DNA of 64,000 bases from assembly GCA_000002435.2 (NCBI GenBank), contig CM018791.1; one strand, given 5' to 3'. The notes below the pieces were generated by a model. That model was not told where the DNA came from. It saw nothing but the letters and a program-made list of their open reading frames with translations, and ran no database searches. Of this stretch, positions 6,538 to 57,902 are shown piece after piece; the stretch's first letter is position 1, and each line of letters starts with the position of its first letter. The position numbers were made by a program, and so were the translations under genes. This DNA is from Giardia intestinalis (lineage: Eukaryota).

Positions 6538-7626
6538 TCACCTTCTGCGGACAATAGGCTTGTTCGTGCTGCGAGGCAGAGCTCTCACGGGTGCACGCTT
6601 CGATTGGGTCGGCTTGGTGATCGCACGAGCGGTGGGGCGGGCTACAGCAGAGCGGCTAGCATTGCCAGTCACAGAGCTCCTCGATTGGACCGTCTTCTTG
6701 GGAGCCGTCCTGGAGCGGGACGTTGAGGCCGTCTTGCTAGATGACCTAACCACTGTCCTGAGCGGTGTTTGGCTGCGGCTGTTTGGCATGTTGCATTTCC
6801 TCTGCGCATTGTGTGCACTGTTGTGCATGTTGCTCTTGGCCTTGCCACAGTTGGAGGCGCTACGAGCGTTGCAGCTTGTCTTTCGTCCCGACGCATTGCG
6901 GACTACTGTCTGCCTGTAGTACGTGCATCCATCTCTCTCGAGAGTTGTGGGGCAGTTTGTCGGCGGGAGAGCAGTGCAGTAATCGCAGTCTGTTGTTCCA
7001 CAGAGGTAGATTCCGGTGTAGGTGTCAGGCGCAGCTGTGCAAACGAGATCGGTGTTGCACTGGACATGAATCTCCATCATGTAAGGCAGGTCGAAGAGAT
7101 CTGCCGGAACGTCGCCAGTCAGCTCGTTGCAGTCAAGGTGGAGCTCCTTGAGGAATTGGAGTTCGTTGACGCAGGTGGGGATGGGACCAGTGAGAGCATT
7201 AATACTCATGTACCAAAACATCATGTGGGTTAAATCACAGATGCACTCGGGAATGTCACCCGTCAGCCCAGCGTTGTTAATTTGCAGGTACTGCATTGAG
7301 GTGAGGGCACAAAGATCCGTCGGGATCGGGCCCGCAAGGTCATTATTATTAAGGTACAGCGACCTCAAAAGTGGGAAGCAGCCTATGTCGGCAGGGAGGG
7401 CACCAGTGAGCCCCATGTCAGAGAGGTCGATCCCAATAACGTTATTGTTAGAGTCGCATGTGATGCCGGTCCAGCTACAGTAAGACACGTCGGGCGTAAG
7501 CCAGTTATTCGACTTCCAATTAGCACCATCCAGGGCATCGTACAAATTGGTCAGGGCCTCCTCCTCGGTGGCAGGGCAAGCGGCGCGAGCAAGACCAAGA
7601 AGTCCTAGAACAAGGGCTGCGATCAT
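6538..7626 (-). CDS. Secreted leucine-rich-repeat protein (plant-type LRR) with a Cys-rich cap and a highly basic Ser/Thr/Arg/Lys-rich C-terminal tail (362 aa).
   Basis: N-terminal signal peptide MIAALVLGLLGLARAA. Repeated LxxLxLxxNxLxGxIP units (LRSLYLNNNDLAGPIPTDL, LQINNAGLTGDIPECI, LHLDCNELTGDVPADL). Multi-Cys region (CGTTDCDYCTALPPTNCP). The last ~110 aa are about 35% R/K/S/T with no hydrophobic segment. Confidence 0.75.
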   Translation of the reverse strand: MIAALVLGLLGLARAACPATEEEALTNLYDALDGANWKSNNWLTPDVSYCSWTGITCDSNNNVIGIDLSDMGLTGALPADIGCFPLLRSLYLNNNDLAGPIPTDLCALTSMQYLQINNAGLTGDIPECICDLTHMMFWYMSINALTGPIPTCVNELQFLKELHLDCNELTGDVPADLFDLPYMMEIHVQCNTDLVCTAAPDTYTGIYLCGTTDCDYCTALPPTNCPTTLERDGCTYYRQTVVRNASGRKTSCNARSASNCGKAKSNMHNSAHNAQRKCNMPNSRSQTPLRTVVRSSSKTASTSRSRTAPKKTVQSRSSVTGNASRSAVARPTARAITKPTQSKRAPVRALPRSTNKPIVRRR

Positions 7627-28569: not shown

Positions 28570-28950
28570 CCTCTTCTTTAAAAATTTGTGCTACTCTACT
28601 CTACCCTATCGTTCTCAGGTAATTAATGATATCATAAAAAACAGAGAGACTTGTTAGTCGTGCACTCTACATAAGCTCAAGCCTAGAATTTAACAGATGT
28701 TTCACGGAGTAGAATGGAACTAATTATATTTGGGATTGATGTTTTATAGGTCTCCTGCTCTTTTTAGAGTTGCACTAAGCTGACGAGGTTTCCTCTTTCT
28801 TTGCTTATGGTTCATGCTTTTCTGACGCTGATTGGATTTGCTTGCAGGTTATTACTGAGCTCTACTACTGTTTCCGCTTCAAGTGAACTTTCTGCCGGCC
28901 GCGTTATACAGTATCATTGAAGATTTGTTATAACAACTATAACTCAAAAA

Positions 28951-31437
28951 ATGACGTCTGCGCCGCAGCCCTCGGGCCTCTTCGACCCGGCGCCCCGGCC
29001 CACGGCGGCGGGGGACGGACGCCCGCCCGCGGCAGCCGCGCCCTCGTTCGTCCTCGCCGGCGACCCCGAGGGCCTCGCAGGCGCGTTCCTCCGCGTCGTC
29101 CACCAGGCGCTCGTCCTCGGGCGGCTCGAGGCCCTCCTCGACGGCCCCCCGCCCGCCGGAGACGCCCCGCAGCTCTGGGCCGGGCTCCTCCGCGCCGCGC
29201 TCGCCGGGGCGGGGACGCTCGACCTGGGGCCTCTTGCCGCGCAGCTCGGGCCGCTCCCAGACCCCGGGGCGCTCCCGGCGCTCGTCCGCTCCCTCCCGGC
29301 CCCCGTCTGCGCCGCGCTCTTCGGGCTCCCCGGGCCCTGCCCCGCGTGCGGCGCGCCCTCCCAGCCCGGGGCGAGCGCCGTCCTCGCGCCCGGAGAGGCC
29401 CTCGCCGCAGGGGCCCGGCGGGTCGGCCTCCGCTGCGAGAGCTGCACCCGCCCAGACGCCCTCCCGCTCGCCCGGCCGCCCCTCCTCCGCGCCGTCGCCG
29501 TCCCCCCGGGCTTCGCGGGCCCCGTCCCCCTCCGGCTCCCCGGCGACCTCTTCCTCGGGGCCGTCGTCACCCGCGCCCGCGCCGGCCACGCGCTCTCGGT
29601 CTTCGTCAACCCCGCCTTCGCCCAGGGCCGGAGCGACCTCGTCCGGGACCGCCGCTTCGTCCTCTACGCGCCCCCGGCCGCCGAGCTCCGCGCCCAGCCC
29701 GGGAGCCGCGCCGCCGAGCTCACGTACCTCCGCTACCGGAAGGTCCAGGCGTACCTCGAGCGCCCCGCCGCCGCCCGCGAGGCCGCCTCCTTCGGGGCGC
29801 CCCGCTTCGTCTTCTACTTCGACGGAGACGTTCTGCACCCAGACATTAGGAAGCGCTTTAATGCGCTAGCCTCTGATACTGACCTGATTGCGATTAATCC
29901 ATCACTATCTGCTCCACATCAGCCTCCAACCCTTTCGCAGCCACACACGCTATCCTCCCCCAAGGAGCCAGAAACTGTTGATGTCACACTTAAAGTCGGT
30001 GGTGCTACCAAGCAAACTCTAGCTGAACAGCAGCACACTCTTGCCTCTCCGTCCCTAGATTCGAGACCGCCTTTGAGTACACTTTCTTTGCACAAATCTA
30101 GCCAACTAGTTGGTGAATCGACTCCTTGGAAAGAAACCAAGACGATCTTATTGCGCCCAGACTTTGTTCAGGAAAGGAAAACATCGTGTTCAGATGAATT
30201 TCGTGAGCACATGGGCATATACATTCTGATTATTGTTCTAGCAGTTATAGTTCTTGTTCTCTTCATCCTCGTGATTGTTCTCTATTCCAGATTGATTAAT
30301 TTGACTGTTCGCAATCTACTTGTCACAAATTTCACGGCAATAGGTGTCCAGTCACGCTTAGACATCCCCAACCCAGCGCAGTTCACGTGCCCAAGTGGGA
30401 TTCAAGACGTGAACGCAGTAAGATACTGTGAGCAGATGGCTCCTGATGCAACCGTTGGCCTCTATGCACCAACTGTTCGAACCGGTACATTCAATTCTAA
30501 GCAGTACAATGTGACCAACCTCTACTATTCTAATATCTTCCTTCTTAACTTTACTCAGATAGCCCCTCTGAATGTCTCCGAACTCATAGCACAGAATATT
30601 ATGACAAATGACGTCACATATAGTACAGAACTTGTCCAGGAAGGGACAGCAGAGTTCCGGACCGGCCAGGTTAGTGTCCAAGGCTTTAGAAGTGCAGATT
30701 TCACCAACACAACGCTGAATTTCAGTCTTACGAGCCTTTCTGCTCTTCATGTGCGTGGCATCTCCTCGCCAAGCTCTGTGACTCCGTCGACTATAGGAAC
30801 TGTCAATGCCGGCAAACTAGTGTTGGCTCAAAAAGATCCAATCACTCCAATCACCACCTTCAGTATAATAGGAGACGTCAATGTGTCACGCCTCGTTGGA
30901 GGCTCTACAACAATCGGACAGCAGGCACTAGAATGGGTGTTTCAGAACGTATCCGCTTCCAAGCTAGTTACCACACCCGTAACAACGACAGTCAAGACAA
31001 TCAATGGAATGGATACTCCTGTCACATTAGATATAAACCTCAATGATGCTTTGTCCGTGAAGACTCTCACTCTTCTTAAGTCGGGTACGTCGGCATCGAT
31101 CCAAATATCTGCTGCATTTACCATCAGTAAGGCTTCTGTATACAATTGCACTACAGCCTTGCTGACAATTCCTAGTGCCACAGCGACTCCGCCCAACACG
31201 GGAACTGGTTTGTATATCAAGAGCCTCTCTGATAAACCGTTTCCTCAGATATCTGCTCTGGTTGTGGGGAATATTCGGATTGACAATGGGGGGATATGCA
31301 ACGCCAATGACCCTCCGGCATCTACGACGCGGACATGCATGATATCAAGCGCAGGCAGCAGCAATATCGGGTCTATGTCTGCCACGACAGTCACTTCTAC
31401 TGGGCAGTTGAAGAGCTCTTTCTGCCAATGCACATGA
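28951..31437 (+). CDS. Compositionally chimeric ORF (828 aa): an Ala/Pro/Gly/Arg/Leu-rich N-terminal ~295 aa encoded by ~80% GC DNA, fused in frame to a single-pass membrane protein with a Thr/Ser/Asn-rich ectodomain.
   Basis: ATG at 28951 follows an A/T-rich initiator (aactataactcaaaaaATG). GC3 exceeds 90% through ~29836, then composition abruptly returns to ~45% GC. There is a TM segment MGIYILIIVLAVIVLVLFILVIVLY at ~30212-30290 and many NxS/T sequons downstream. An alternative internal start is the Met at 30211. Confidence 0.55.
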   Translation: MTSAPQPSGLFDPAPRPTAAGDGRPPAAAAPSFVLAGDPEGLAGAFLRVVHQALVLGRLEALLDGPPPAGDAPQLWAGLLRAALAGAGTLDLGPLAAQLGPLPDPGALPALVRSLPAPVCAALFGLPGPCPACGAPSQPGASAVLAPGEALAAGARRVGLRCESCTRPDALPLARPPLLRAVAVPPGFAGPVPLRLPGDLFLGAVVTRARAGHALSVFVNPAFAQGRSDLVRDRRFVLYAPPAAELRAQPGSRAAELTYLRYRKVQAYLERPAAAREAASFGAPRFVFYFDGDVLHPDIRKRFNALASDTDLIAINPSLSAPHQPPTLSQPHTLSSPKEPETVDVTLKVGGATKQTLAEQQHTLASPSLDSRPPLSTLSLHKSSQLVGESTPWKETKTILLRPDFVQERKTSCSDEFREHMGIYILIIVLAVIVLVLFILVIVLYSRLINLTVRNLLVTNFTAIGVQSRLDIPNPAQFTCPSGIQDVNAVRYCEQMAPDATVGLYAPTVRTGTFNSKQYNVTNLYYSNIFLLNFTQIAPLNVSELIAQNIMTNDVTYSTELVQEGTAEFRTGQVSVQGFRSADFTNTTLNFSLTSLSALHVRGISSPSSVTPSTIGTVNAGKLVLAQKDPITPITTFSIIGDVNVSRLVGGSTTIGQQALEWVFQNVSASKLVTTPVTTTVKTINGMDTPVTLDINLNDALSVKTLTLLKSGTSASIQISAAFTISKASVYNCTTALLTIPSATATPPNTGTGLYIKSLSDKPFPQISALVVGNIRIDNGGICNANDPPASTTRTCMISSAGSSNIGSMSATTVTSTGQLKSSFCQCT
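28956..29836 (+). other. Roughly 0.9 kb compositional island (~80% GC against a ~48% background) with strong 3-nt periodicity in the +1 frame of the 28951 ORF.
   Basis: Codon-by-codon reading shows third positions are almost exclusively G/C while second positions are mixed. All six frames are stop-free across the block: ORF-track entries 28879-29838(-), 28917-29849(+), 28944-29609(-) and 29234-29869(+) all terminate at the edges of the block. Confidence 0.9.
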
Positions 31438-44245: not shown

Positions 44246-47200
44246 ATGCAGCCCTCGCTCAAACGATCCACCAACATAAGTAGTCTGGCATCACGGCAAC
44301 GTGTGTACGTGAAGATCTTTCAACGATTGCGACCGCACACGCTCATTCACCTCATAACGACATCCCAAACGTTTTATACGCTCGTTACCAACTATATAAA
44401 CAGTGGTTCATTAACCTATATTGCATCGGAAAGCCATCAAGCAGAAGATCTCCGAGCATGGCTTGGCCTGTTGAAAGTGCTCATGATATCTCCAAAGACT
44501 AGCCTAGTGCTCCCCAGATTCTTTTCCGTCACCAACATTTTAATGGAAAACCTAGATCGTCAGTACTACATCTCCTTGCTGCTCGAAGTAGTGACAGGAC
44601 TTTTATTGCGGTCGAAAACCTTTCTTTCAGAATTGCATTGCAATCTTGATTTAAGCTGCGACATTCTATTCAAGATCTTGCAAGAATTGAACCTCCGCGT
44701 GCTTGTCTTTCACCGACCCTACAAAGAGTTGTCTCGAGAATACTATCTAGAGTTCAATAGAATTTTACAATCCTTTACATTAAGCACCGATAGTTTCTGG
44801 AATAGCGAGTACAGCTCTAATCCGCAGATCAAGGCCCTGGATGACGTTGCCACAGAGGTGTTCCACGTCTGCCGCAATCTGACCTCTCTCACTATACCGG
44901 CACGTGTCATGGATTTCATTCTGCCAAACAGCCTAGAAATGCAAATTCTCGACGAGGACTACGAGATCAACCTGACTCATCTTTCAACGGTACTTGTTGT
45001 GCGGGCTGGAGACCTTGAGCACGAGCGTGTTCTTTCCCTGCAGTGCCACTTCTACAAGCATCTCCTCTCGCTGACACTCGACATGGAACAAATCCCAGGT
45101 GTTAATCACCTCTTCCTGACGCACAGACATCTCCAGCGACTCGCTTTATATTCCTCAACTGGATTGGTGGAATGTCCACTGCTGGTGTTCCCCTCGCTGC
45201 GGAAGGTTACCATAGAGCTCCGGCCTTTAGAGCAAGAGCATGCGGGTGTTGACAAATTCATAGGTGTATTCTTGACTATGGAGGCATTCATCTCCCTGTT
45301 TGCTAATTCTATCAACATATCATACATAAATGCAGTGTATTCGGACCAGATAACGAAAACGGACATCACAGAAAAGTTATATGGTTTACGATATGAATCT
45401 CTAACATTTCTGCGGTTACGGTTTTTCCCAGTCAAGTCGGAGGAGCTGGAAAGGCACGGGATAACATCTGCAGCTCTTGCACGTCTTGCACACAAGATGC
45501 CACGACTCCGAAAGCTGACCTTGTCTGGCTTCAGAGACATGCTTGGTGACACTCACGTGGCATGCATTCTGAAGAGCTGTCCTTTCTTGGAAGAACTATC
45601 TTTAACGGGTAGACATGACGTACTCCCTAACACCAAGCCATACATCTGCTCGTGCAACACACAGCTTCTGTGGCATTCGCAGTCGGAGACAGCTGAGTCC
45701 CTGGATGGGTCAAGTGAGCACTCGACTGTATACACTGCATATAACCGACACTTCCATCGAGAGGCGACATGTAAGTCTAGCATGTTGGTTGCCGCAGAAC
45801 ATCCCCCCTGCTGGACAGGACCTGCCGAAGAATCTCAGGAGCCGGCTAGCCCCTATCTCACATCCAAGCTCGCCGTTCTAAAATTGAAACAGATCTATAT
45901 CACCGACGTAACCTTTATCAATCTGTATTTGCTAGGGGCCGGAGACAGTTTGAAAGTACTATGGATTGATGCACTTCCACGCATATCTTCTATTGGTGTA
46001 GGTTTACTGATTAATCAGGTGCTGCTATATGGACCTCTGTTAACCACTCCTGTGCGCCAGATCCCCACCCAGCCAGCAGATTTCTCTGACCAAGTATACA
46101 CCTCTCTGACCAAACGTGCCCTCTCAGAACACAATGAGAGGTACGTAAGGGGGCTGTGTTCGGATTTGTGCTCGGATGCAGAGTCGATTGAGGAGTCTTC
46201 GCCAAGCTCACATTCAGAGTGTACAACGACGATCACTCCTACGCATGATAAAGCCAGTGAAGCACTCGACAACTTAACTGATTGTACGGCCAAAACCAGT
46301 ACCGCACTTAGCACCTCTTTTGATATAGATTCCCTATCAGCTATTTACAAAGAGACAGTCTTGACAGAAAGGGTTAGAGATTGGTGGGTCAAACGACTTC
46401 AAAGGCTGGACAAACACATCTGCAGATACCAAGAACTTTTGAAGGCACAGCGGGACAGGCAAACCCTACTTAAAATCACAAATCTATCCTTCAGCGACTC
46501 ATATCTACCGCTCTATCACGTCCCCAAATATGATATTGCATTTATAAGCGAGTCTGAACCTGTCATTGATAGCAGTCAGCCATATATAAACTATGTAAGT
46601 GGCCCATATGATCAATTAGAGTACGATGCTGTACTAACTATGTCCTCATTCTCATCGCTAGACAATGAAAAAGATAAACCTCAATCTGACTCTCTTCATG
46701 CCAATTTGTCGACGCATAGATTTAACGACTCCGTTAGTCATATAAACGTTGGACTCAAAGGTTCGTCAGAAGCGTACAGTCCACACATGGCCTTTGTCAT
46801 CTTCAGGACAAAGCATCAACCGTTTATCTCTATGCGCTATCCTCGGCTCAATGCCGATTCAATATACTCTCTATTTAGTGCGCATGGGGTATGTCGACGA
46901 ACCTTCAAGAAGATCGTGGGCCAGAACAATACAGGTACTCTCGGGGCCCAGTACCGCATCGTATATGATTCGGCCTTACAGACTGTAAGTACGATTGAGT
47001 GGACGTCATTCACCCCGCTACAATCAAGAGACATCTCCATTGCTGATGCGACGTTTTTTCCACTGGCGCATAAGCTAGCGAAAGATAAGACAATGCCTCT
47101 TCCTGCTACCCTGTTGTCATGGATCCTCTCGGAATACTTTGAGTCTAGTGCTCTTGAAAAGGTCAGCGTGGCAAACTGCGAGTTGGTAGATGGTAACTTA

Positions 47201-47449
47201 GTAACGTCACTGGCTACAACAAATACGCAGTCACTCCACTCTCTTCAACTGAAGCTCCTTTTCCCCGTTCATCACACAGCGTTCCATACCCTTGTCCTAC
47301 ACCACAGCCACAGCCTAAGGTACCTCTATCTACTTCCCTTCTCTTCCGAATCGGAAAATGAAAAATTTATTGATGCGGTGAAACAGATCTCTAATATACT
47401 CACGATAGATTTAGATTGGAAGACGGAGAGGAGCCTTCTATTTATTTAG
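44246..47449 (+). CDS. Hypothetical protein (1067 aa) with a probable RNI/F-box-like leucine-rich-repeat segment.
   Basis: ATG at 44246. The segment LRKLTLSGFRDMLGDTHVACILKSCPFLEELSLTGRHDV (~45510-45630) resembles cysteine-containing LRRs. The rest has no recognised motif. Confidence 0.75.
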   Translation: MQPSLKRSTNISSLASRQRVYVKIFQRLRPHTLIHLITTSQTFYTLVTNYINSGSLTYIASESHQAEDLRAWLGLLKVLMISPKTSLVLPRFFSVTNILMENLDRQYYISLLLEVVTGLLLRSKTFLSELHCNLDLSCDILFKILQELNLRVLVFHRPYKELSREYYLEFNRILQSFTLSTDSFWNSEYSSNPQIKALDDVATEVFHVCRNLTSLTIPARVMDFILPNSLEMQILDEDYEINLTHLSTVLVVRAGDLEHERVLSLQCHFYKHLLSLTLDMEQIPGVNHLFLTHRHLQRLALYSSTGLVECPLLVFPSLRKVTIELRPLEQEHAGVDKFIGVFLTMEAFISLFANSINISYINAVYSDQITKTDITEKLYGLRYESLTFLRLRFFPVKSEELERHGITSAALARLAHKMPRLRKLTLSGFRDMLGDTHVACILKSCPFLEELSLTGRHDVLPNTKPYICSCNTQLLWHSQSETAESLDGSSEHSTVYTAYNRHFHREATCKSSMLVAAEHPPCWTGPAEESQEPASPYLTSKLAVLKLKQIYITDVTFINLYLLGAGDSLKVLWIDALPRISSIGVGLLINQVLLYGPLLTTPVRQIPTQPADFSDQVYTSLTKRALSEHNERYVRGLCSDLCSDAESIEESSPSSHSECTTTITPTHDKASEALDNLTDCTAKTSTALSTSFDIDSLSAIYKETVLTERVRDWWVKRLQRLDKHICRYQELLKAQRDRQTLLKITNLSFSDSYLPLYHVPKYDIAFISESEPVIDSSQPYINYVSGPYDQLEYDAVLTMSSFSSLDNEKDKPQSDSLHANLSTHRFNDSVSHINVGLKGSSEAYSPHMAFVIFRTKHQPFISMRYPRLNADSIYSLFSAHGVCRRTFKKIVGQNNTGTLGAQYRIVYDSALQTVSTIEWTSFTPLQSRDISIADATFFPLAHKLAKDKTMPLPATLLSWILSEYFESSALEKVSVANCELVDGNLVTSLATTNTQSLHSLQLKLLFPVHHTAFHTLVLHHSHSLRYLYLLPFSSESENEKFIDAVKQISNILTIDLDWKTERSLLFI

Positions 47450-47815
47450 CGGGCTGCTATGCTGTGTACCCAGTACGCTGGTTTATAAAAATATCCTCTC
47501 TAGATCCCCGCAAAATTGATGTTAAGGCAATAAATGGTATGAAATATTAAAACTTTTAAGGTTTTTTTGCAATATTGAATTGTAATTTTGATTAGTAAAT
47601 TGAAGTGGATAGAATTGTATAAAGAGTGGAAGGCGAGTAGATTGCAGACCACTTTTTACAATCCTGTGTCTTTATCTTAGAAGATTTAATATGGCGCCAA
47701 GGCAATACATGGTTTAGCACTGAAGGCTATAAGTAAATGCTTAACGATAGTCATACTGTACTGTGAACCTGAACCGAAAAAACTAACTTGAGCCAAAAGA
47801 AGGGTGCAGGAGAAA

Positions 47816-50800
47816 ATGAGAGGCTCGTCTCCTTCACAATATAGGAAAACTGGGTTGAGTGCACAGCTTGCTGCACCCCCACAGCCACTCCAAAGACCTG
47901 AAGACTGGGCTTTACCAGACAGCCAGTCTGCCGCTCGCGTCAACGCGACTAGAATTCCAGAGCATTATTGGCGGGTTCCTAAGGATACTCTGACATACGT
48001 TAATGGTGTACCTATGCGACAAACAGATGCCGACACAATTTTTCCATCGAGTGAGCCGCGGACAGAGGCAGAGCGTTTATGGTTGTACAACTTTTCTTCC
48101 GACGTCCTGAGTCATGTGACAGGCCGTGCGTCATACTTAAATCTCAACAAAGAGGGAGACATTCGATTTGTACTGCACGGGATTAATCTTCTCCAAATCT
48201 TCTGCTTTGAAATATCGCGACATGTGGCCTGCATAACGCTTGACAAGCAGACGTATCCTTATGAGAAACTGGCTGAACTACTTGTTTCTATCTCCCACTC
48301 ACTCCAAGGCCTAAATGAGAATCTGACCCATTACGCAGCAAATGAGGCATCACATGCGCCATTACTATCGGATCTTTCTAACTTTTATCGATACACTAGT
48401 CCGGGAACAGATATCACTAACTTATATGCAGACGTCCGATCAACCACAGCCATAGACACAGAGACATCATTGGCCCTTATAACAGAGTTAGAGCGGCGTC
48501 TCAGCGAGGAAAAGGAGAGCGCGAAGAAGCGCGAGACTGAATTAGAACAACGAATCAAGTCCCTAGAATCAGAGCTTGCTGCCCAGAAGAAGAACTCCTC
48601 CCGGTTAGAGCTAGAGCTCAGTGCCACCAAGACTATCAGAACAAACATCACATCAACACACTCATTAGGGAAGGGCCTCAGTGCTAGCGCGAGCAATTTG
48701 GCCCAAGGCTCCTCTGCCCCAGGAATATCTGCAGAAGATTCTTTAACAGACCTGAAGCCCCATGCGGCAAGAAAGCCACATAGCCTGAACACTGATATGA
48801 TAACAACGAACATCTACTCCTCATTTGCCCCAGCTCCAGCTCCAATGACTCAAGCATCTTCCTCAATCAGACTTTTGCCCCAAAACGTCACAGATATATA
48901 TGGGAACATTAGCACAATGTCTATGCAGCGTAGCCAGCCTCGTGGAGAAGGAGCAGTCCTCCAGCGCATCAGCGAGATGCCGGTTTCACACAATCTCACC
49001 GGGCAGCAGACTCTTGGAGACGGTGCTGATTACACGGTGCTACGTAGCTGCACAGGTGGGTCTCAAAGGATGCTTGATCGCTTTGGAAAGCGAGAAGCTG
49101 ACCTGGATCACGTAGAGACTGTCCCAAGCACGCTTGAGGTGTCCAACTGTCGTGACTCCAGCAGGATTGAGCTCCATAGCGGAAGGACAGACCCGTCACA
49201 GAGGTCGTCAGCCATCTTTCAAACTATAGGCAACCTAATGTCTGCACAGCTAACGGCGTCACATCGCATTCCCAGTCGTCCCCAAACGGCCCCAGACCCA
49301 GAGTATCCTAGTCTTTCTTACAGGAGCACACAAGAAATCGGGCCGTCCGTCAATTCATCAATAGATATAACAAGGTTACAACGGAAAAACTGGGCTGATG
49401 TAACAATGAAAGACACCAGAGGGAGGGCATCTGAAAAGCTCATCAACAGCTCCGGACACCAAGACGTACCTGATCCCACCGCTACTCTTGTTCTTCCAAA
49501 GGGCTTAGCAAGCGCTGCATCCAAGTTTTTAGGGGCTATCATGAGCCTTGATGAAGATGACGCCTGGAGGCTGGAGGCCAACCTAACCCGTCAACTGACA
49601 AGGAATACATTAGACACGCCCTTAGCAGGAACTTACAATAAGGACCTTGGCCATGTACTGCTACGACAATCGAATGATACCCAAGCCTTTTCATTACTTA
49701 ATCCTATATGCATGTCACACGAAAAAGCTATCGGAGAAATAGATTTATCTGCAGATAATTTCAGAATTACGTTTCGAGCTATTCCAGAAGTAGCCTCGGG
49801 GCAGAAATCACTTTTTTCCGGCCAAGTCGCACAAGGTTGGACAGACGATTATTTACAGCAATATATGCGTGAAGTGGATCTTACCAATACTGGCACACAT
49901 TCGTCTCGACCGCTACTGCTCAGCGGCCATTCTAATTCCTTGCCGGCCGCGTCTTCATCCCTCGCTGTCTTCAACAACTCGATTGAATCAGGAATAGTAG
50001 AACCCCAACATACTCTTCCACAACCACTAAAGTCTGCTGTTGGACGTCATATTCCCATCCTGAGCAAAAATCGCTATATAAACCCTGAGGTGAGGCCCAA
50101 GACTAGTTTGAAGCCAGCAAGAATGTCCAAACGTTCCTCTACCAGTACATCACCAACAAGGCATAATATGTCTACTGACCCCGTGGCTGAGGTAGAGGCT
50201 GACAATCTTCCTCCCAACCAGTCAGCGCACGAGTTCATTACCGAGGCAGATGCGTTCCAGGGGATGATAGCTCTGGGAGAAAAAGATATGTCGCCAGCAC
50301 TTGCAGATCCCTCTGCACATACAGTTACATGCAGAACTCTTTATTCTAAGACGCGAGCAGAGCTACACACTATTTATCGACATATCTACTCCTTAAGGAG
50401 CACAGGAAGTGACACCTCAGTGGCTGATCGAGGCTCAGAAGAAAAGATCCTTTTGCAACCTCGCTACATAAGCCAGTATACAAAGATAGTTGATGCCCTG
50501 CTGCAAACAGAGAACGGATTGCAATCAATCCCCTTCATAAAGGGCCCATCTTATCTAGAGTCACAGTATGGACAGAGTGATCAGAAGAAGGAGTCTATCA
50601 TGCTTCTAACACGAAAGCTCTTTTGTAGTGACTCAATTTTCTCATTCACTACCAATGATAACATTTTTCAGGCTTTGAACGAGCGTATTGCTACTGTTTC
50701 TCAACAAGAGCTCCGAGACGTTTTATGGTGTGACTTTCTCACACAATGGAATTCACTGACCAACGGTATTACTGGACAAGAGACAAAGCAAGCTGCCCTA

Positions 50801-53200
50801 ATATCGAGATGCCTTGAGAACATGTGCCGAAAGTGGGACATACTGCCTCTTATCAAGCTCATTCTATGCTACAAGTTCGACTTACACACATCAATCCGTT
50901 TAGACGACCTAACACTCTTTAAAACCGGGAATAAAAATGGATCTAGTTCTGTGATGCAAATGTTTACACATCCAGGATTCTTTTCTGGGGCAAGCAAGAC
51001 ATATTTCATGGGTCTATCTAAGACCACGCATCTCTATAAGATCCTAAAGCCATCTATGCGGGTATTTTGTGCAAAGCTGGACTCAGCAGCTTCTAGAACA
51101 GCATCTCATGCTAGTATCAAGTCTACTACACAAGCTAGAATAAGTGTAGAGGAACAAAAGGGCCTTATGCATCTACGATCAATCGTTTCAAGTATTGGTT
51201 ATGTACTTCTCGATCTACGCGCAGTTTTGGGGATTATTCATGAGCTGATCATTCAAAGGCATGCATCTTGTGAGCTTTCTGCCAAAAAGGACGCTAGCTA
51301 CAATCCTATGGACAGGTTTGTTCTTGAGGTCTTCATGCACCACAATTCTATGGATATTGATAGAACACATCGCGCACTAATTTCTTTTCTTCTTAGCATT
51401 CAAGTCTATGTTCTCTGTGATCATCTATCAGAGGATTTTGGGGCAGAGTGTAAAGATGAGGACAACCAATTGGATAGTCTCTGGCCAGGTTCTAGGCACA
51501 GCCCGACACGTCCACTTTCTATAGCCTCGCATGCAGGTGCAATGTATAAACTGAATGAAGCTGGTGAATCCGATGAAGATGAGACATCTCTTTTCGATGA
51601 TCCTGTCCTGGATGACGCACCCGTGAAAGTCAGGCCAGCATCAGAGGCATTAGGCATCTTCCAATGTAACGAGTTTCTTCTCGTATTTCTGGAAATGCTT
51701 TCTTCGTCAGATCACGTCATCACTGAATACCTCTGTTATTCCTATATAATGCTCCATGAATGTAGTGGCGCCAAATATCCCTATCCATTTATCGGCTTAG
51801 ACTCGGTACTCTTGTTGATTAGAAAGCTGCTTCCAGAGCTTCCAGGGCCATATTTTGCATTACTGAATTCGTCGCTCAAACACATAGCTGTTACTGATAG
51901 GTGTGATGCGCCCGTATTAGATGTAGGCACTGTGCTCCGCATACTAGGCTCTCAAAAACGTATGGTGCGACTTATGCTTATGAATGCAGTCGCAGAGGAG
52001 TACGGCCGCTTGCTCACCAAGGAGACTATTCCGCAAGCAGGACCTTCTCTCGAAGACATCCCTAGAGCAATAGAATCTGGGGACAGATTGATACCAGATA
52101 CCACCTCTCCAATGACAGCTGGAGGTCGTCGTGATCCGACAAAGAAACCCAAGTCGTCGATCAAACAAAAGCGAGAGAACAAATCCATCGATGAGTTGAA
52201 GACGTCCTGCTACCTCGACGTCCCAATCACCTATGAGAACTTTGTCACGGTAATCTCTAAGACAGGAGGCGCTCTTTTCCCAGCAATGACTGCTAAATAC
52301 TATTATGCTGCAATGTGGAATGCAGCTGTCGACAAAGCTGAGTCTACTTCCACGCGTCCATCTACATTAGGATCGGGGTTGGAGCCTGGGTCCCACATCA
52401 GTTCAAGCATGCCATCCCTAAGACGTATCTTCTCTATACTTCCATATGTTGCATACGAGCCATTTCCTTGTCTGTTCAAGATCCTCTCTCGGAAAAGCAA
52501 ATTATTCTCTACGCAAAGACTTTACTATGGGCATGAGGTAAGCGCTCAGCATGATATCCAGGCCCTTGTGCTTCGGTATGCCCTGTGTGGAGATAGATAT
52601 GGGCATATTCAAGAGCTTCGAGGAACTCTCAAAACCATTGTCTATGAGCTGGAGGCTCCAGTCAAGCGGCTTGTTTCCATGTTGACATGTGAGGCTAATG
52701 GATTGGCATACAATATGGAGCCATTTTATATATCTGCGCGTTTGTCTGGCTCCATCACCACCACCACTACCAGTGTTTCAACTGTCTGCTCCCCTGAAGC
52801 TACTAAGTGCTCTATTAGCTCTCTATCTTATACAATGCCAGCTAGGAGACACCTCTCTGCAATGGCTATGCAGCTGACCGCACTTTATGCCTCAGCAAAG
52901 CTCACCATTGGAGACAACTCGCTTCCAGACGACGCTTTGGTGGATGTCATCAGCACAATAAGAGAACTTAGCATTCAGATGCACATATCTTACCAGTCCT
53001 TGCGTCCTTTCAACAGCAGCATCACTGGGCTCCTATATGAATTACAAGACCGATTACAAGGTGTTGTGCGCTGTGACTCTTACTTGTGCAAAAATGTTAC
53101 AGCTGAAGAGATGCTTCGGGAAACTTTGGGCGTTGACAACATCAGTGGGCCACTGGCACGGATACTGGGCATGGCACGCAACTCCATACATATCCAGTAG
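47816..53200 (+). CDS. Very large hypothetical protein (~1795 aa) with an N-proximal coiled-coil.
   Basis: The ORF-track start at 47804 is GTG. The first ATG at 47816 follows caggagaaaATG. Coiled-coil at ~48480-48640 (LITELERRLSEEKESAKKRETELEQRIKSLESELAAQKK). It is preceded by a ~360 bp A/T-rich intergenic region. Confidence 0.8.
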   Translation: MRGSSPSQYRKTGLSAQLAAPPQPLQRPEDWALPDSQSAARVNATRIPEHYWRVPKDTLTYVNGVPMRQTDADTIFPSSEPRTEAERLWLYNFSSDVLSHVTGRASYLNLNKEGDIRFVLHGINLLQIFCFEISRHVACITLDKQTYPYEKLAELLVSISHSLQGLNENLTHYAANEASHAPLLSDLSNFYRYTSPGTDITNLYADVRSTTAIDTETSLALITELERRLSEEKESAKKRETELEQRIKSLESELAAQKKNSSRLELELSATKTIRTNITSTHSLGKGLSASASNLAQGSSAPGISAEDSLTDLKPHAARKPHSLNTDMITTNIYSSFAPAPAPMTQASSSIRLLPQNVTDIYGNISTMSMQRSQPRGEGAVLQRISEMPVSHNLTGQQTLGDGADYTVLRSCTGGSQRMLDRFGKREADLDHVETVPSTLEVSNCRDSSRIELHSGRTDPSQRSSAIFQTIGNLMSAQLTASHRIPSRPQTAPDPEYPSLSYRSTQEIGPSVNSSIDITRLQRKNWADVTMKDTRGRASEKLINSSGHQDVPDPTATLVLPKGLASAASKFLGAIMSLDEDDAWRLEANLTRQLTRNTLDTPLAGTYNKDLGHVLLRQSNDTQAFSLLNPICMSHEKAIGEIDLSADNFRITFRAIPEVASGQKSLFSGQVAQGWTDDYLQQYMREVDLTNTGTHSSRPLLLSGHSNSLPAASSSLAVFNNSIESGIVEPQHTLPQPLKSAVGRHIPILSKNRYINPEVRPKTSLKPARMSKRSSTSTSPTRHNMSTDPVAEVEADNLPPNQSAHEFITEADAFQGMIALGEKDMSPALADPSAHTVTCRTLYSKTRAELHTIYRHIYSLRSTGSDTSVADRGSEEKILLQPRYISQYTKIVDALLQTENGLQSIPFIKGPSYLESQYGQSDQKKESIMLLTRKLFCSDSIFSFTTNDNIFQALNERIATVSQQELRDVLWCDFLTQWNSLTNGITGQETKQAALISRCLENMCRKWDILPLIKLILCYKFDLHTSIRLDDLTLFKTGNKNGSSSVMQMFTHPGFFSGASKTYFMGLSKTTHLYKILKPSMRVFCAKLDSAASRTASHASIKSTTQARISVEEQKGLMHLRSIVSSIGYVLLDLRAVLGIIHELIIQRHASCELSAKKDASYNPMDRFVLEVFMHHNSMDIDRTHRALISFLLSIQVYVLCDHLSEDFGAECKDEDNQLDSLWPGSRHSPTRPLSIASHAGAMYKLNEAGESDEDETSLFDDPVLDDAPVKVRPASEALGIFQCNEFLLVFLEMLSSSDHVITEYLCYSYIMLHECSGAKYPYPFIGLDSVLLLIRKLLPELPGPYFALLNSSLKHIAVTDRCDAPVLDVGTVLRILGSQKRMVRLMLMNAVAEEYGRLLTKETIPQAGPSLEDIPRAIESGDRLIPDTTSPMTAGGRRDPTKKPKSSIKQKRENKSIDELKTSCYLDVPITYENFVTVISKTGGALFPAMTAKYYYAAMWNAAVDKAESTSTRPSTLGSGLEPGSHISSSMPSLRRIFSILPYVAYEPFPCLFKILSRKSKLFSTQRLYYGHEVSAQHDIQALVLRYALCGDRYGHIQELRGTLKTIVYELEAPVKRLVSMLTCEANGLAYNMEPFYISARLSGSITTTTTSVSTVCSPEATKCSISSLSYTMPARRHLSAMAMQLTALYASAKLTIGDNSLPDDALVDVISTIRELSIQMHISYQSLRPFNSSITGLLYELQDRLQGVVRCDSYLCKNVTAEEMLRETLGVDNISGPLARILGMARNSIHIQ

Positions 53201-53310: not shown

Positions 53311-54009
53311 CTACTCTGGGAAATCAAACTCACTATCTCTCGGGGAGCTTTCTGTTACGCTCAACCCTGCAGTGGCTTGTGACATGTAAGAAAGGCTCTC
53401 TTCCCTTCTAATCTTTATGCGGATTTTCTGAAGGTAGGACTCCACGTTTTGGCGGGTAAGATTGGGAAATTCGTCCTGAATTAGGTTCAGAATGCGGGAA
53501 GGGGTAGCCCTTGTGACTCCGAGTTGGTATATGGCTGCGTCTGCCTTCTTCCTGAACGCCTCTGTCCATGAGAATTTGGTCTTAGCTGGAGCGAGAGACA
53601 TTTGCGGCACTATTCTGTTATATATGTTTAATAACTCCATTAGGACGCTTTGGTTCATCATGTCACTATAGGTTATCATGCTTTCCTCAGTGTGCGTGAC
53701 TATTGCCACAATCTTTCGTAGTGAGTGCAGTAACTGGGCCACTTGTTCGACAGTTACGCCATTTCGTGCAAACTGGGTACACAATGGACAACAGGAGGTT
53801 ACGGCGATACTTGAATCGTGGCTGTTGATGGATAGCTCTTGGGAGACTACCTCTGTTTTGGATGGAATGATACTGCTGTTCTCTAGTCTATCAGTCTTTG
53901 CTTTTTGTGCTTTCATGTGATAGTACGCCATACGCACCGCGACGTTCTTGCTGGTAAGGCTAGTGCTCTTCCTAATTCTATTGTCCTTTTTTGCACTTGA
54001 CTCGGGCAT
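53311..54009 (-). CDS. Myb/SANT-like DNA-binding protein of the SHAQKYF (GARP-like) class (232 aa).
   Basis: The single Myb-like repeat WTEAFRKKADAAIYQLGVTRATPSRILNLIQDEFPNLTRQNVESYLQKIR (~53410-53570) matches the W..E.H..F..A...LG...A.PK.I......LT...V.SHLQKYR pattern. ATG confirmed at 54007-54009. Confidence 0.6.
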   Translation of the reverse strand: MPESSAKKDNRIRKSTSLTSKNVAVRMAYYHMKAQKAKTDRLENSSIIPSKTEVVSQELSINSHDSSIAVTSCCPLCTQFARNGVTVEQVAQLLHSLRKIVAIVTHTEESMITYSDMMNQSVLMELLNIYNRIVPQMSLAPAKTKFSWTEAFRKKADAAIYQLGVTRATPSRILNLIQDEFPNLTRQNVESYLQKIRIKIRREESLSYMSQATAGLSVTESSPRDSEFDFPE

Positions 54010-54407: not shown

Positions 54408-56558
54408 TCACCCTACCAGACTCATGATGTCATCTTCTAGGACGTGGCGGTAGTATTGTGTCTTCGGCATGTGCATACTTGCTAACTTGGATTTGTGGTC
54501 GCGAATTGCACGCACCAGTGCGTCTCCAGATGGAATCGGCAACGCCAGGCGGCAATTGATGCCGGGAAGAACAAGCGTATCCTCAGAACCATCCGCTTTT
54601 CTAGCTACTCCACAAAATGAGATCATATCTTTAATTATCCCTGGTATGAACTGAGCGCCTTGATCAGATGTTTCAAATATCCAATGTGCGTCTCTCGAGA
54701 AGATCGTGAGGACTTTGTAACGATTTTGGATCTGGTAAATGTCATCCAATGGAACCGCACTGGCACCATCTAGCTCGTAGTAGTCTATGTGGATGGGGTA
54801 CGTGCTCAGCAATTTGTTCTGGTAGTAAACTGCTAGGCGACAATACCGGATACAGGCCAACTCTAGAGACGAAGGAGAAAATCGTGCCTCATCATCCTTT
54901 TCTACCAAGTAGTCTGGGTCCTCGAATCGCCCAATCTTCTCTGTGCACTGTTCAACGCTTATTCCAAGCAAAGTGGTGTAAAACCAGATGATCCTGGCTA
55001 TTATAAAATACATTACATAGTAATAAAACGGCACCTCGGTCTTGTAGAGATAGCCTGCGGGCTCGAAGAGACGATAGTACGGAAGTAAGCCAAACTCGAG
55101 AGCCCAGCATCCTAGGAGACAGCGAAGCCTTTCGTATGCTTTCCTCGTTTTATCATTCACTGAGAAAGCACTCTTGATTGTGTCTAACTCTGTAAACCAG
55201 ACCATGAAATGACTATAACAGAACTTTCTATAAATTCTGTCCAAATTGAGGACATTTCCCAGTGAGGTGGCCATGGCCAACCTGGATAGTGTGTCAGATG
55301 CCATATTAACTACATCGTTAATAGACCTGGATAGAGACTTGCAGAGCAAACTATCTATCCGGCGAACATATTCTATTGCTTGCAGAGTAACAATAGAGCG
55401 ATTAACACTATAGAACGTGGATAGCTTCTCCACAATGGTAAAGGGCCGCTTTTGAATGCACAACTGATAGACTGATAGGTATGCATCTTTAAAGAAATCT
55501 ACACCGTTCCCCAGTTCGGTTAACATTGCAAAAAAGAATTTTCGAGACGAGTCCATGTACCTATAGATACCCTCAGGTGAGAACTGTGTAGAAAGAGGCT
55601 TTTCTTTTTCAGGGAGAGTCCTGGAGTCCAAGCGTGCGATAGTGTAGACGGCGTAAACCTTAGAGTGGTACATATTATTATGATAGTAGTTGGACAAGTA
55701 CTTTGAATAGTTCAGCTCATGCAACCAGGAAAAGGATAGGTCAAGGGCCTGAGTAAGGTGCATAATATCTTCAAGGAGCTGAGAGGAACGCTTGGGAGTG
55801 ACACCGTTGGCCACGCCCGCGGTAACTATCTGAATCAGAACAAAAAGACTGGTCTGGTAGTATGCTGGAACATCTTTCCGGGACTTTTCTTCCAGATTTA
55901 GGACTTTTATAAACACTCCGTAGGGGAAAACCGCACTATATCCATCATAAAAGATCGACTCTATCTCTGAAAGACTGAGGTACATGGCGTAGTGCAGTAG
56001 ATCAAGATTATAATCATCGTTGTGCTTGCATTTTGCGGCAGAAAAGGCATTCCTGTGGATTGAACCTAATAAGACAGCAGATAGAAGGATTGCATAGACG
56101 GAGAATAAAATATAAAGTTGAGTATTTGTTATGCCTGGTATGGATGAGCGTACGTATGCCAAGAGGGTACTTTCTGTTTCCTGCGCCGCCTTCTGCACCG
56201 TCTCGCTGGAGGCCCTTGCTTTAAGATAACTTCTTAGCAGGTCAATAGCTTGCGCAACAATGCCATGATATGAGAGGGACACGGGGACCATGGACTCCGT
56301 GAGGCAGAAGAAGTCACAAAGCACCCCATAGACTGCCTCTTCAGGCGTCAAGGCGCTGATCAGCTGCGTCAGGGAGAGGCGAGTGTCCTCGTCTTTCAGG
56401 CAGGAAATGGCATCAAGCGCCGGGTTTCCATACTCTGGCACTCTGAGGGCTTCTGAGAAAGACAGTGATGGGCTCATAAAATAAGTCTTGGGGGTGAGAT
56501 TGGCAGCAGAAGTGAAGAAGTCGGTAGTGACATCAATAAGCTTTTCCGGCTCGGGCAT
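54408..56558 (-). CDS. Hypothetical protein (716 aa) with at least two hydrophobic (possible TM) segments.
   Basis: ATG confirmed at 56556-56558. Hydrophobic stretches LYILFSVYAILLSAVLLGSI and YYYVMYFIIARIIWFYTTLLGI. No recognised domain. Confidence 0.7.
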   Translation of the reverse strand: MPEPEKLIDVTTDFFTSAANLTPKTYFMSPSLSFSEALRVPEYGNPALDAISCLKDEDTRLSLTQLISALTPEEAVYGVLCDFFCLTESMVPVSLSYHGIVAQAIDLLRSYLKARASSETVQKAAQETESTLLAYVRSSIPGITNTQLYILFSVYAILLSAVLLGSIHRNAFSAAKCKHNDDYNLDLLHYAMYLSLSEIESIFYDGYSAVFPYGVFIKVLNLEEKSRKDVPAYYQTSLFVLIQIVTAGVANGVTPKRSSQLLEDIMHLTQALDLSFSWLHELNYSKYLSNYYHNNMYHSKVYAVYTIARLDSRTLPEKEKPLSTQFSPEGIYRYMDSSRKFFFAMLTELGNGVDFFKDAYLSVYQLCIQKRPFTIVEKLSTFYSVNRSIVTLQAIEYVRRIDSLLCKSLSRSINDVVNMASDTLSRLAMATSLGNVLNLDRIYRKFCYSHFMVWFTELDTIKSAFSVNDKTRKAYERLRCLLGCWALEFGLLPYYRLFEPAGYLYKTEVPFYYYVMYFIIARIIWFYTTLLGISVEQCTEKIGRFEDPDYLVEKDDEARFSPSSLELACIRYCRLAVYYQNKLLSTYPIHIDYYELDGASAVPLDDIYQIQNRYKVLTIFSRDAHWIFETSDQGAQFIPGIIKDMISFCGVARKADGSEDTLVLPGINCRLALPIPSGDALVRAIRDHKSKLASMHMPKTQYYRHVLEDDIMSLVG

Positions 56559-56699
56559 CCTCTTCTGTCAACGCAAGTTAGTGAATCCTAATCAATAATT
56601 TGCAAAACAAATACAAAATATTTTGCAATTTTAATTGCTTGCAAATGACCAGTAATCTAGGTCTTACGCACTTGGGGGGTCTGGCAACTTCTTGCCGGG

Positions 56700-57902
56700 A
56701 TGAATTGCTGCGGCGGGAAGCGGGGCTCCAGGATCTTTGTTAATCGGTCTGTATCCCCTATGCTGTCGTCCTCTTTAGATGAATCAGCTGTCATCGAAGA
56801 GAAGTGTCAGTACACATTAGTCCCTCTAGAGGATCTCGAGGTGGAGCGGTGCTCCTCAGATCTCTTCCCACAGTCGTCCACTTTATTATCATCCTCATCA
56901 GTAAGCGCAACTCCTCCTTGTGGGCCTCCTTTACTTGAATTCGACAACAGTAGGCAACCGAGCACCTCTGCAAGTACGCAGTGCTATATACCATCCCAGA
57001 ACTCTGATTTCCCTGCACAAGGTAGCGTTCTTCATAATCCTGATCACTCCATCGGCGAGGTTTCTTCTAAAGAACCATACTCGGTGGATGAACACGGAAA
57101 TCAGCTCTATCCCACGGACTCCAAGGGCCGTGAATACTATGCCTCTGCTGATGGTAACGAAATCTATGCCCTGGATAACTGTGGTTGCGAATATTATGCA
57201 AAGAGAGCAGATTCTCAGGAATATTACGCTAAACTTGCCAACGGAGACGAAAGGCTGGCCAAGAATAGTTTGGGAGATGAGATGTACGTGACAGATTTGA
57301 ATCATATGGAGTTATATCCTCACACGGCGTGCGGAGACCCTATTTTCGCTAAAGATGCTGACGGGAATGAAATGTACGCTTATTCTGGAGAGCTTAGGCA
57401 AGAGATATATCCGTGTGATCAGCGACGCTGGCAGGTCTATGCACGCCTTGCCACTGGCGCCCAGGTCTATGCCAGAGCTGCAACGGGAAGCGACTATTAC
57501 GCACAGGATCCATTTGGAAGCGAAATCTTGGCTAAGGATGACAATGGGTCAGAGTATTATGCATGCGACGGTGCTAACAATGAGTTCTATCCATTAGATG
57601 CAATTGGGAACACGATTTATCGTCGTGCGCTAGAGAATGGGAGGGAGTTCTACGCCCGTGCTAAAAATGGCGACGAGCATTATGGAAGCAACGCATTGGG
57701 TGATGAGATCTATGCGACTGATGAGTCTGGGAACCAGTACTATTCATCAGACTTCACAGGTAGACGCATATATGCCAAAGACCGTCACGGCCTTTATTAT
57801 TCTGCACATTCCATTACAACACAGAGCACCCACACTGTTGCAGATGACAGACAGGCAGCAGTGGACGAGGACCCAGTACAACTTCTCTCTGCAAGTAATT
57901 AG
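56700..57902 (+). CDS. Tandem-repeat protein (400 aa): about 24 consecutive copies of a 10-residue unit D-x-x-G-x-E-x-Y-A-x.
   Basis: Residues ~120-360 can be parsed into successive decamers (DSKGREYYAS / ADGNEIYAL / DNCGCEYYAK / RADSQEYYAK / ... / DESGNQYYSS / DFTGRRIYAK). The Gly at position 4 and Tyr/Ala at positions 8-9 are nearly invariant. The DNA copies are diverged (not a recent expansion). Confidence 0.7.
   Translation: MNCCGGKRGSRIFVNRSVSPMLSSSLDESAVIEEKCQYTLVPLEDLEVERCSSDLFPQSSTLLSSSSVSATPPCGPPLLEFDNSRQPSTSASTQCYIPSQNSDFPAQGSVLHNPDHSIGEVSSKEPYSVDEHGNQLYPTDSKGREYYASADGNEIYALDNCGCEYYAKRADSQEYYAKLANGDERLAKNSLGDEMYVTDLNHMELYPHTACGDPIFAKDADGNEMYAYSGELRQEIYPCDQRRWQVYARLATGAQVYARAATGSDYYAQDPFGSEILAKDDNGSEYYACDGANNEFYPLDAIGNTIYRRALENGREFYARAKNGDEHYGSNALGDEIYATDESGNQYYSSDFTGRRIYAKDRHGLYYSAHSITTQSTHTVADDRQAAVDEDPVQLLSASN

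Follow-up and report, generated by a model that had tools for sequence, protein, structure and literature searches.

A tandem ten-residue repeat in a predicted membrane-tethered protein of Giardia intestinalis, with relatives in spider genome assemblies

The DNA analysed here, referred to as the window, is a stretch of 64,000 nucleotides from Giardia intestinalis contig CM018791.1 (assembly GCA_000002435.2). At positions 56700..57902 it carries an open reading frame (ORF) for a protein of 400 residues, of which residues 129-368 form an array of 24 back-to-back units of about ten residues each. The gene and its parts are listed below; pLDDT is the predicted local distance difference test score.

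56700..57902 (+): complete ORF, 400 amino acids plus stop, start MNCCGGKRGSR; an in-frame TAG at 56658-56660 excludes a longer N-terminus.
56700..56738 (+), residues 1-13: N-terminus MNCCGGKRGSRIF, with Cys3-Cys4 followed by Lys7, Arg8 and Arg11; candidate dual S-palmitoylation anchor, from direct reading.
56739..57083 (+), residues 14-128: Ser/Pro-rich non-repeat region, probably a disordered linker, judged by composition and by a single-sequence AlphaFold2 pLDDT of 26-36 over residues 1-120.
57084..57803 (+), residues 129-368: array of 24 units of ~10 residues each, from autocorrelation and segmentation; this region alone finds relatives (136 matches, best E = 1.2e-23).
57090..57329 (+), residues 131-210 (model residues 11-90): first ~8 units, modelled confidently as a periodic strand-turn structure (AlphaFold2, DSSP).
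57381..57473 (+): degenerate units 11-13 (YSGELRQEIYP, CDQRRWQVYA, RLATGAQVYA), lacking the D and/or the G of the turn, from segmentation.
57804..57899 (+), residues 369-400: C-terminal polar tail of 32 residues, AHSITTQSTHTVADDRQAAVDEDPVQLLSASN, with no repeat and no hydrophobic anchor (pLDDT 31-38).

The array was segmented by hand and checked codon by codon against the DNA. Twenty of the 24 units are exactly ten residues long, two have nine and two have eleven, and the consensus reads [KR]1-D2-x3-x4-G5-x6-E7-[YI]8-Y9-A10. Position 9 is Tyr in 21 units and Phe in one more, and position 5 is Gly in 19. Glu occupies position 7 in 15 units, with Gln in four more, and Ala occupies position 10 in 15, with Pro in four more. 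Asp is present at position 2 in 13 units and Lys or Arg at position 1 in 10, whilst position 8 is hydrophobic or aromatic, with Tyr and Ile in seven units each. Tyrosine accounts for 29 of the 240 residues in total. The initial annotation had placed about 24 tandem copies of a DxxGxExYAx decamer at 57060-57800. Copy number and motif are both borne out, with coordinates off by no more than about 24 nt and a register shift of one, the D at the first position of that motif being position 2 in our numbering. The degenerate units 11-13 may mark a boundary between two sub-arrays.

The periodicity is far above chance. In a BLOSUM62 autocorrelation of the protein, compared with 500 shuffles, z is 13.4 at lag 10, 9.7 at lag 20 and 6.9 at lag 30, and values at most lags that are not multiples of ten are negative or near zero. 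The same analysis gives no separate 20-residue super-period beyond the harmonic of 10. The repeat is detectable in the protein only, Tandem Repeats Finder reporting nothing on the DNA at a score of 30 or above. Compared pair by pair, the units are on average 31% identical in amino acids and 43% in nucleotides; at third codon positions the value is 32%, against 26% expected from composition, and the four possible Gly codons and the two Glu codons all occur in the conserved columns. Since third codon positions are near random, that is, near-saturated, the repeat is old and is maintained by selection on the protein, in agreement with the earlier view of diverged DNA copies under selection. It follows from this protein-level selection that ORF 56700..57902 is a real gene. 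It is the only long ORF of the window with a repeat conserved at the protein level, and the motif was found in none of the window's other ORFs.

The gene recurs in read assemblies. An identical protein, flanked by the same two neighbour genes, is present on SRR10368407 and SRR3177751, the latter being a Giardia duodenalis assemblage A genome (PMC9618722), and the identical gene call, seen on Giardia duodenalis read assemblies, is indexed in 124 blocks of the collection. Residues 1-128 include 27 Ser and 12 Pro. No signal peptide or transmembrane segment was detected in the protein, for which the maximum 19-residue Kyte-Doolittle mean is 0.6. The N-terminus of GAP-43, MLCCMRR, is a dual palmitoylation motif. 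The Giardia protein likewise has Met-x-Cys-Cys followed by basic residues at its extreme N-terminus, and it shows the full GAP-43-type pattern of Cys-Cys within the first five residues, adjacent basic residues and neither transmembrane segment nor signal peptide, whereas the remainder of the chain is unrelated to GAP-43. The MNCCGG start singled out in the initial annotation is indeed part of the ORF and, because it is accompanied by the lack of a signal peptide or transmembrane segment, a lipid anchor at Cys3/Cys4 appears reasonable, the acylation itself being predicted from the sequence. Giardia possesses nine DHHC palmitoyl transferases (PMC4109852).

Comparison with named repeat families gave no assignment. 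Pfam-A contains no family that matches the Giardia protein at E<=10, and that includes MORN, MORN_2, RTX/HemolysinCabind, Pentapeptide, RHS_repeat, Kelch and WD40 as well as Tcp10_C, CW_binding_1 and WG_beta_rep; the suggestion that the repeat falls outside the familiar MORN, RTX, pentapeptide, YD, Kelch and WD classes is upheld at that threshold. NCBIfam returned one meaningless match of 10.7 bits. A phmmer search of the protein against all PDB chain sequences found nothing below E = 0.058, and a 40-position repeat profile found nothing below E = 0.9 in the same sequences.

The unit lengths and motifs of the known classes also differ. RTX nonapeptides (GGxGxDxUx) form a parallel Ca2+ roll from 9-residue units and the MORN unit (YxGxWxxGKxHGxG) has 23 residues, as opposed to the Giardia period of 10. 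MORN repeats, which occur in junctophilins, TbMORN1 and axonemal MORN proteins, stack their beta-hairpins into an elongated antiparallel sheet. The choline-binding repeat CW_binding_1 is a 20-residue hairpin unit with GW...YY. Rhs/YD repeats (type VI secretion Rhs effectors, Tc toxin BC, teneurins) have a D-x-x-G-type turn flanked by Tyr and line up as a long antiparallel strip, as is predicted for the Giardia array, but their period is ~20 residues with a YDxxGRL(I/T) motif, there is no strict tandem regularity, and more than 600 residues of strip are closed up to make a cocoon. The TCP domain of CPAP/SAS-4 (the G-box, Pfam Tcp10_C) is a single-layer sheet of ~20 consecutive antiparallel strands, often with PDG at the turns, with both faces exposed to solvent, and binds a proline-rich peptide (PMC3776556). 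This G-box uses ~9-10 residues per strand and turn, the same arithmetic as the Giardia decamer. A CPAP orthologue was nevertheless rejected: Tcp10_C does not match the Giardia protein, other regions of CPAP are missing, and neither the protein nor the repeat profile matches the domain among PDB sequences at E<=10. Identity with SAXO/MAP6 was rejected because the motif is unlike the Mn modules.

Relatives do exist. An exhaustive HMMER/phmmer scan of 1.84 billion representative proteins at E<=1e-3 identified 138 that match the Giardia protein, 38 of them at E<=1e-10 (best 1.3e-21), with best identities of 32-38%. All matches lie inside the array except for one low-complexity match (P0068), the only one to align with the Ser/Pro region. 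Within the matched proteins [YF][AP] pairs are spaced by ten residues 712 times and by any other distance at most 140 times, and the strongest autocorrelation is at lag 10 in 107 of the 138. A hidden Markov model (HMM) made from the Giardia units alone scores the relatives with E-values down to 1.4e-50. In the columns that played no part in picking the units, the relatives prefer K1, D then N2, G5, E then Q7, and Y or I8, which are the preferences of the Giardia array. Control searches with five residue shuffles, with six permutations of the columns in which period and composition were preserved, and with reversed units gave 0 matches to the relatives, and it is thus the residue order inside the unit that the similarity reflects. 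The defining pattern of this unnamed family, a tandem 10-residue K-D-x-x-G-x-E-[YI]-Y-[AP], is present in the Giardia protein.

All relatives that bear a name derive from assemblies of spider genomes, in which they are labelled hypothetical or uncharacterised and are often present in several copies. The sources are Trichonephila clavata, T. clavipes, T. inaurata, Caerostris darwini, Argiope bruennichi, Araneus ventricosus and Oedothorax gibbosus; examples are GFR12918.1 (T. clavata), GIY41341.1 (C. darwini), KAF8796701.1 (A. bruennichi), GBN47546.1 (A. ventricosus) and KAG8179052.1 (O. gibbosus). They share with Giardia the 10-residue spacing and the consensus Y-[AP]-K-D-x-x-G-N-E-[IY]-Y, but the arrays are less regular, with a run of at least four exact decamers in only nine relatives. 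The Giardia protein differs in its N-terminal CC motif, its Ser/Pro linker and its lack of a transmembrane segment. A hydrophobic C-terminal anchor is found in 66 of 131 relatives, so that a membrane anchor often accompanies the repeat domain, and in 33 relatives a GYPxTxD module lies upstream of the hydrophobic segment. Both this C-terminal GYPxTxD...TNVKSTR module and the transmembrane anchor are absent from the Giardia protein (maximum hydrophobicity 0.6). No Pfam model exists for the decamer repeat of the relatives.

In many of the spider proteins the C-terminal module runs RYA...YPLDEYGNEYTL...GYPITNDxxVIVPEVxGK...IGKLYR...DYVTNVKSTRLSR and then continues into a transmembrane segment (P0008, P0148-P0156, P0019 and P0025; columns ~1200-1474 of the alignment A4); it may also be written RYA...YPLDEYGNEY...GYPxTxD...TNVKSTR followed by the transmembrane anchor, and it too has no Pfam model. 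Several T. clavata copies begin with long Pro-rich repeats, (ENKPTAVDPPL)n. The consensus of the WG repeat has a D-x-x-G-x-x-hydrophobic core. The spider relatives hold one ...INWGxDxxGNQRYA... string of this kind, whereas the WG unit is ~35 residues long. Four of them (P0151, P0152, P0155 and P0162) carry the UniRef label 'WG repeat-containing protein', and hmmscan against Pfam-A at E<=10 detected WG_beta_rep in none of the four. Automatic annotation may have been stretched too far here, set off by the single INWGxDxxGNQRYA string.

Other searches were less productive. A search with a 104-sequence alignment (A3) returned only the Trichonephila-type relatives of its first row. P0103 and P0056, two matches of the exhaustive scan that contain exact tandem KRAMGSEFLG/KRRMGSEFLG decamers, were rejected as relatives; their repeats are neuropeptide-precursor-like, with KR dibasic cleavage sites. 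IMG/VR had 0 matches to a degenerate YAKDxxGNExYP pattern and no confirmed relative of P0001. The JGI metagenomes yielded no relative of the Giardia protein; a degenerate GNExYAKD pattern has 120 single matches there, none of these loci has an array according to the Giardia HMM, and they were rejected as chance matches. A word-indexed homologue search with the Giardia protein gave no match in a collection that does not hold the protein itself.

The company kept by some relatives is virus-like. The decamer repeat is fused to a dUTPase in P0003, to Baculo_p74_N in P0013 (E = 4e-13) and to a weak Bro-N domain in P0009. Relatives without a name lie on short, tightly packed Logan and ENA contigs, three of which are described here.

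L003, 180-2407: decamer-repeat gene 6 bp downstream of an Rpb6-like gene.
L005, 42-4647: decamer-repeat gene adjoining genes for a 520-residue Rpb1 domain-2 protein, a Sushi protein and an innexin.
L007, 2-3943: three decamer-repeat genes in tandem.

The 520-residue Rpb1 domain-2 protein on L005 is possibly LEF-9-like. The domain fusions (p74-N, Bro-N and dUTPase) and the packed contigs suggest that the relatives make up a so far undescribed family of genes from large arachnid DNA viruses or from endogenous copies of such viruses.

To inform on the fold, residues 121-380 of the Giardia protein were modelled with AlphaFold2 as 26 ten-residue blocks, using a 33-row alignment (A4) of Giardia and relatives. 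A single-sequence prediction of the protein is uninformative, with a mean pLDDT of 35.9. The alignment-based model of the array has a mean pLDDT of 59.8 and a predicted template modelling score of 0.47; the first nine blocks score 73, 95, 93, 93, 94, 91, 88, 81 and 70 and the remainder ~30-60. In the confident part DSSP assigns the pattern EE-EE----- every ten residues. The strand comprises E7-[YI]8 and A10-[KR]1, with Y9 at a kink or bulge between them, and D2-x-x-G5-x6 forms a five-residue reversal, the loop of positions 2-6.

Foldseek comparison of the model with the PDB places Rhs/YD proteins first, with 7q97_A, 8uy4_A and 8qja at E = 9e-5 to 7e-4 and the class as a whole at 9e-5 to 1e-3, although the template modelling (TM) scores are only 0.10-0.15. 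Teneurins, Tc-toxin BC, glucansucrase glucan-binding domains, pneumococcal choline-binding proteins and TcdB/TcsL follow, again with TM-scores of 0.10-0.15, and MORN proteins and the CPAP G-box are also among the neighbours with weak scores. These are hairpin-repeat architectures; no parallel beta-roll and no RTX protein is present among the structural neighbours, and a search of the BFVD viral structures found nothing at E<0.017. According to the model the array is most likely an antiparallel strand-turn meander, which may be open and flat, twisted or wound into a hairpin superhelix. A parallel roll of RTX type appears unlikely because no such protein occurs among the neighbours. The initial annotation had favoured a beta-solenoid or beta-roll. 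The beta-rich and strictly periodic character it predicted stands, but the neighbours are antiparallel hairpin repeats and not parallel rolls. The best reading of the repeat is an undescribed variant of a known beta-hairpin repeat class, belonging to an unnamed family.

These features can be combined in a proposal, to which we assign a rough probability of 0.4, that the Giardia protein is cytosolic and membrane-tethered and that the array serves as a membrane-attached scaffold or spacer. DHHC palmitoyl transferases would S-acylate Cys3 and Cys4 and so fix the protein to a membrane on its cytosolic side, and the Ser/Pro region of ~115 residues would provide a flexible tether. In each unit E-[YI]-Y-A-[KR] would form a short kinked beta-strand and D-x-x-G-x the reversal, with successive units pairing antiparallel to create one long beta-meander ribbon. 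If flat, this ribbon would extend over 24 strands × ~4.8 Å, or ~115 Å, and the Tyr of every unit would contribute to a ladder along it that could act as a binding surface. The ribbon might then be a rigid, elongated binding platform or spacer, and not an enzyme, with a protein motif, the cytoskeleton or lipid head groups as partner. We infer the palmitoylation, the overall shape and the scaffold function, the last by analogy with the CPAP G-box, MORN arrays and Rhs/YD strips.

Several observations weigh against this proposal. The palmitoylation is predicted from five residues only, and it depends on the start codon. Giardia initiators are usually AT-rich and adjoin the ATG, and leaders tend to be very short. 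Between the 716-residue ORF on the minus strand and the repeat gene lies a divergent intergenic region of 141 bp (56559-56699). Its AT-rich core is at ~56590-56650, at least 50 nt from the ATG of the repeat gene, and the 40 nt directly 5′ of that ATG are GC-rich. An out-of-frame ATG at 56645, in the AT-rich stretch, opens an ORF of 31 codons. This layout is unusual for Giardia and bears on which start codon is used; were translation to begin at Met21 the CC motif would be lost. With respect to the fold, confident modelling extends over roughly the first third of the array, the scores being low from about model residue 100. Both faces of the strand are hydrophobic (positions 8 and 10 on one, position 9 on the other), so that packing into a closed or superhelical form may be favoured and a flat ribbon disfavoured. 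The protein collection searched, which contains neither this protein nor its two neighbours, yielded no orthologue from other Giardia lineages or other diplomonads. Literature searches found no expression, localisation or interaction data, and nothing specific for the N-terminal peptide or for a palmitoylated repeat protein of Giardia.

How might the units be arranged if not as a ribbon? A near-invariant Tyr and a second aromatic or aliphatic residue in each unit, together with the two hydrophobic faces, would be better suited to a packed hairpin superhelix, or 'beta-beta solenoid', resembling choline- or glucan-binding repeats or the clostridial CROPs and acting as a multivalent head-group binder at the membrane. 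Two decamers would make up each hairpin, the hairpins would stack about a screw axis, and aromatic cages would bind phosphocholine or sugars. The choline-binding repeat also holds YY-x-D-x-x-G-like strings, and Foldseek matches include the glucansucrase glucan-binding domains 5ngy, 6syq and 6t18 as well as 2bib (Pce/CbpE), 2v04 (CbpF), 8jb5, 8qen and 6oq5 (TcdB/TcsL). However, the choline, glucan and Tcd matches have E-values of 0.02-0.8 with TM-scores of ~0.1 and are surpassed by the Rhs/YD strips, CW_binding_1 is without a match even at E<=10, and a 20-residue super-period is missing, lag 20 being weaker than lag 10 and the A/P at position 10 not alternating. In the absence of a signal peptide the known extracellular ligands would also be out of reach. 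We judge the superhelix unlikely. Far less probable is a Ca2+-binding parallel roll of RTX type, in which two units would complete each coil, Asp and Glu would chelate Ca2+ and folding would depend on it. The unit is compatible with that idea in its shortness, in its conserved Gly, Asp and Glu residues and in having a brief hydrophobic strand, but the period is 10 and not 9, there is neither a GGxGxD motif nor a HemolysinCabind match at E<=10, and the cytosol, where the protein is presumed to reside, is low in free Ca2+ and unsuited to the RTX folding switch. It is also improbable, if less extremely so, that the array lacks a stable fold and is a low-complexity sequence rich in Tyr, Asp, Gly and Glu, forming condensates through weak multivalent contacts or serving as a substrate for Tyr modification or cross-linking. 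The 29 Tyr in 240 residues, the single-sequence pLDDT of 36 and values below ~60 for about the last 15 units even with the alignment are in keeping with disorder. Yet Gly (19/24) and Asp are conserved at fixed turn positions despite randomised third codon positions, which argues for a positional structural constraint and not one on composition alone, arrays with permuted columns no longer resemble the relatives at all although their composition and period are unchanged, and pLDDT exceeds 90 over five consecutive units.

A separate question concerns origin and not mechanism. We tentatively propose that the decamer is a new, minimal strand-turn repeat class, building a long free-standing or superhelical meander, that is homologous between the membrane-tethered Giardia protein and the membrane-anchored relatives attributed to large arachnid DNA viruses; this is possible, and we would not put it more strongly. 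The resemblance between Giardia and spider proteins might instead be convergence on a simple strand-turn motif, the Giardia array being lineage-specific. The units are only ten residues long, the similarity is confined to the repeat, with the GYPxTxD module and transmembrane anchor missing in Giardia, best identities are 32-38%, the lineages are very distant, and the GC content of the gene is unremarkable within the window. Against this, the first preference is common to seven of ten positions and second preferences are shared too (Q7, P10, N2 and I/Y8), the E-values fall to 1e-21 with the protein as query and to 1e-50 with the profile, and the permutation controls gave zero matches. We consider convergence doubtful, though by no means far-fetched.

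The window as a whole consists of long, intronless, closely packed ORFs, mostly without a Pfam match. The repeat gene adjoins a 1156-residue ankyrin protein, and an Fe-alcohol dehydrogenase is also encoded in the window. The immediate surroundings of the repeat gene are otherwise almost wholly unannotatable; ORFs 54408-56558 (-, 716 residues), 53311-54009 (-, 232 residues), 47804-53200 (+, 1798 residues) and 44246-47449 (+, 1067 residues) have no Pfam match at E<=1e-3. A leucine-rich-repeat gene lies further away.

6538-7626 (-): ORF of 362 residues with an LRRNT_2 domain and leucine-rich repeats, ~50 kb from the repeat gene and with no suggested link to it.

The size and architecture of this ORF presumably mark it as a Giardia cyst wall protein (CWP2-like). 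At 28900-29900 about 1 kb of DNA has 61% G+C, compared with 44-51% elsewhere in the window, and ORFs are open on both strands. This segment corresponds to the first ~300 residues, rich in Ala, Pro, Gly, Leu and Arg, of an 828-residue ORF at 28951..31437 (+), the rest of which contains a transmembrane segment and many N-x-[ST] sequons. No tandem repeat or Pfam match was found here.

What would follow from these assignments? If the homology is true then the decamer goes back to an old fold that has so far escaped recognition, or else a gene has passed from one lineage to a very distant other. To our knowledge a long beta-meander of ~10-residue units has been described essentially only for the CPAP G-box; should the fold prediction hold, the Giardia array would be the second natural very long beta-meander of such units, and the repeat signature would label ~130 uncharacterised protein clusters. 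The distribution of the motif among virus-like elements of spider assemblies is undescribed in the libraries searched. For Giardia itself, the copy may prove to be a structural protein particular to its lineage and of limited wider interest. Most of the Giardia genes in the window are without a recognisable domain, and each repeat class that can be defined aids annotation. A protein that is predicted to be dually acylated and that carries a rigid array of 24 strands would be a plausible candidate to link Giardia membranes to the organism's unusual cytoskeleton.

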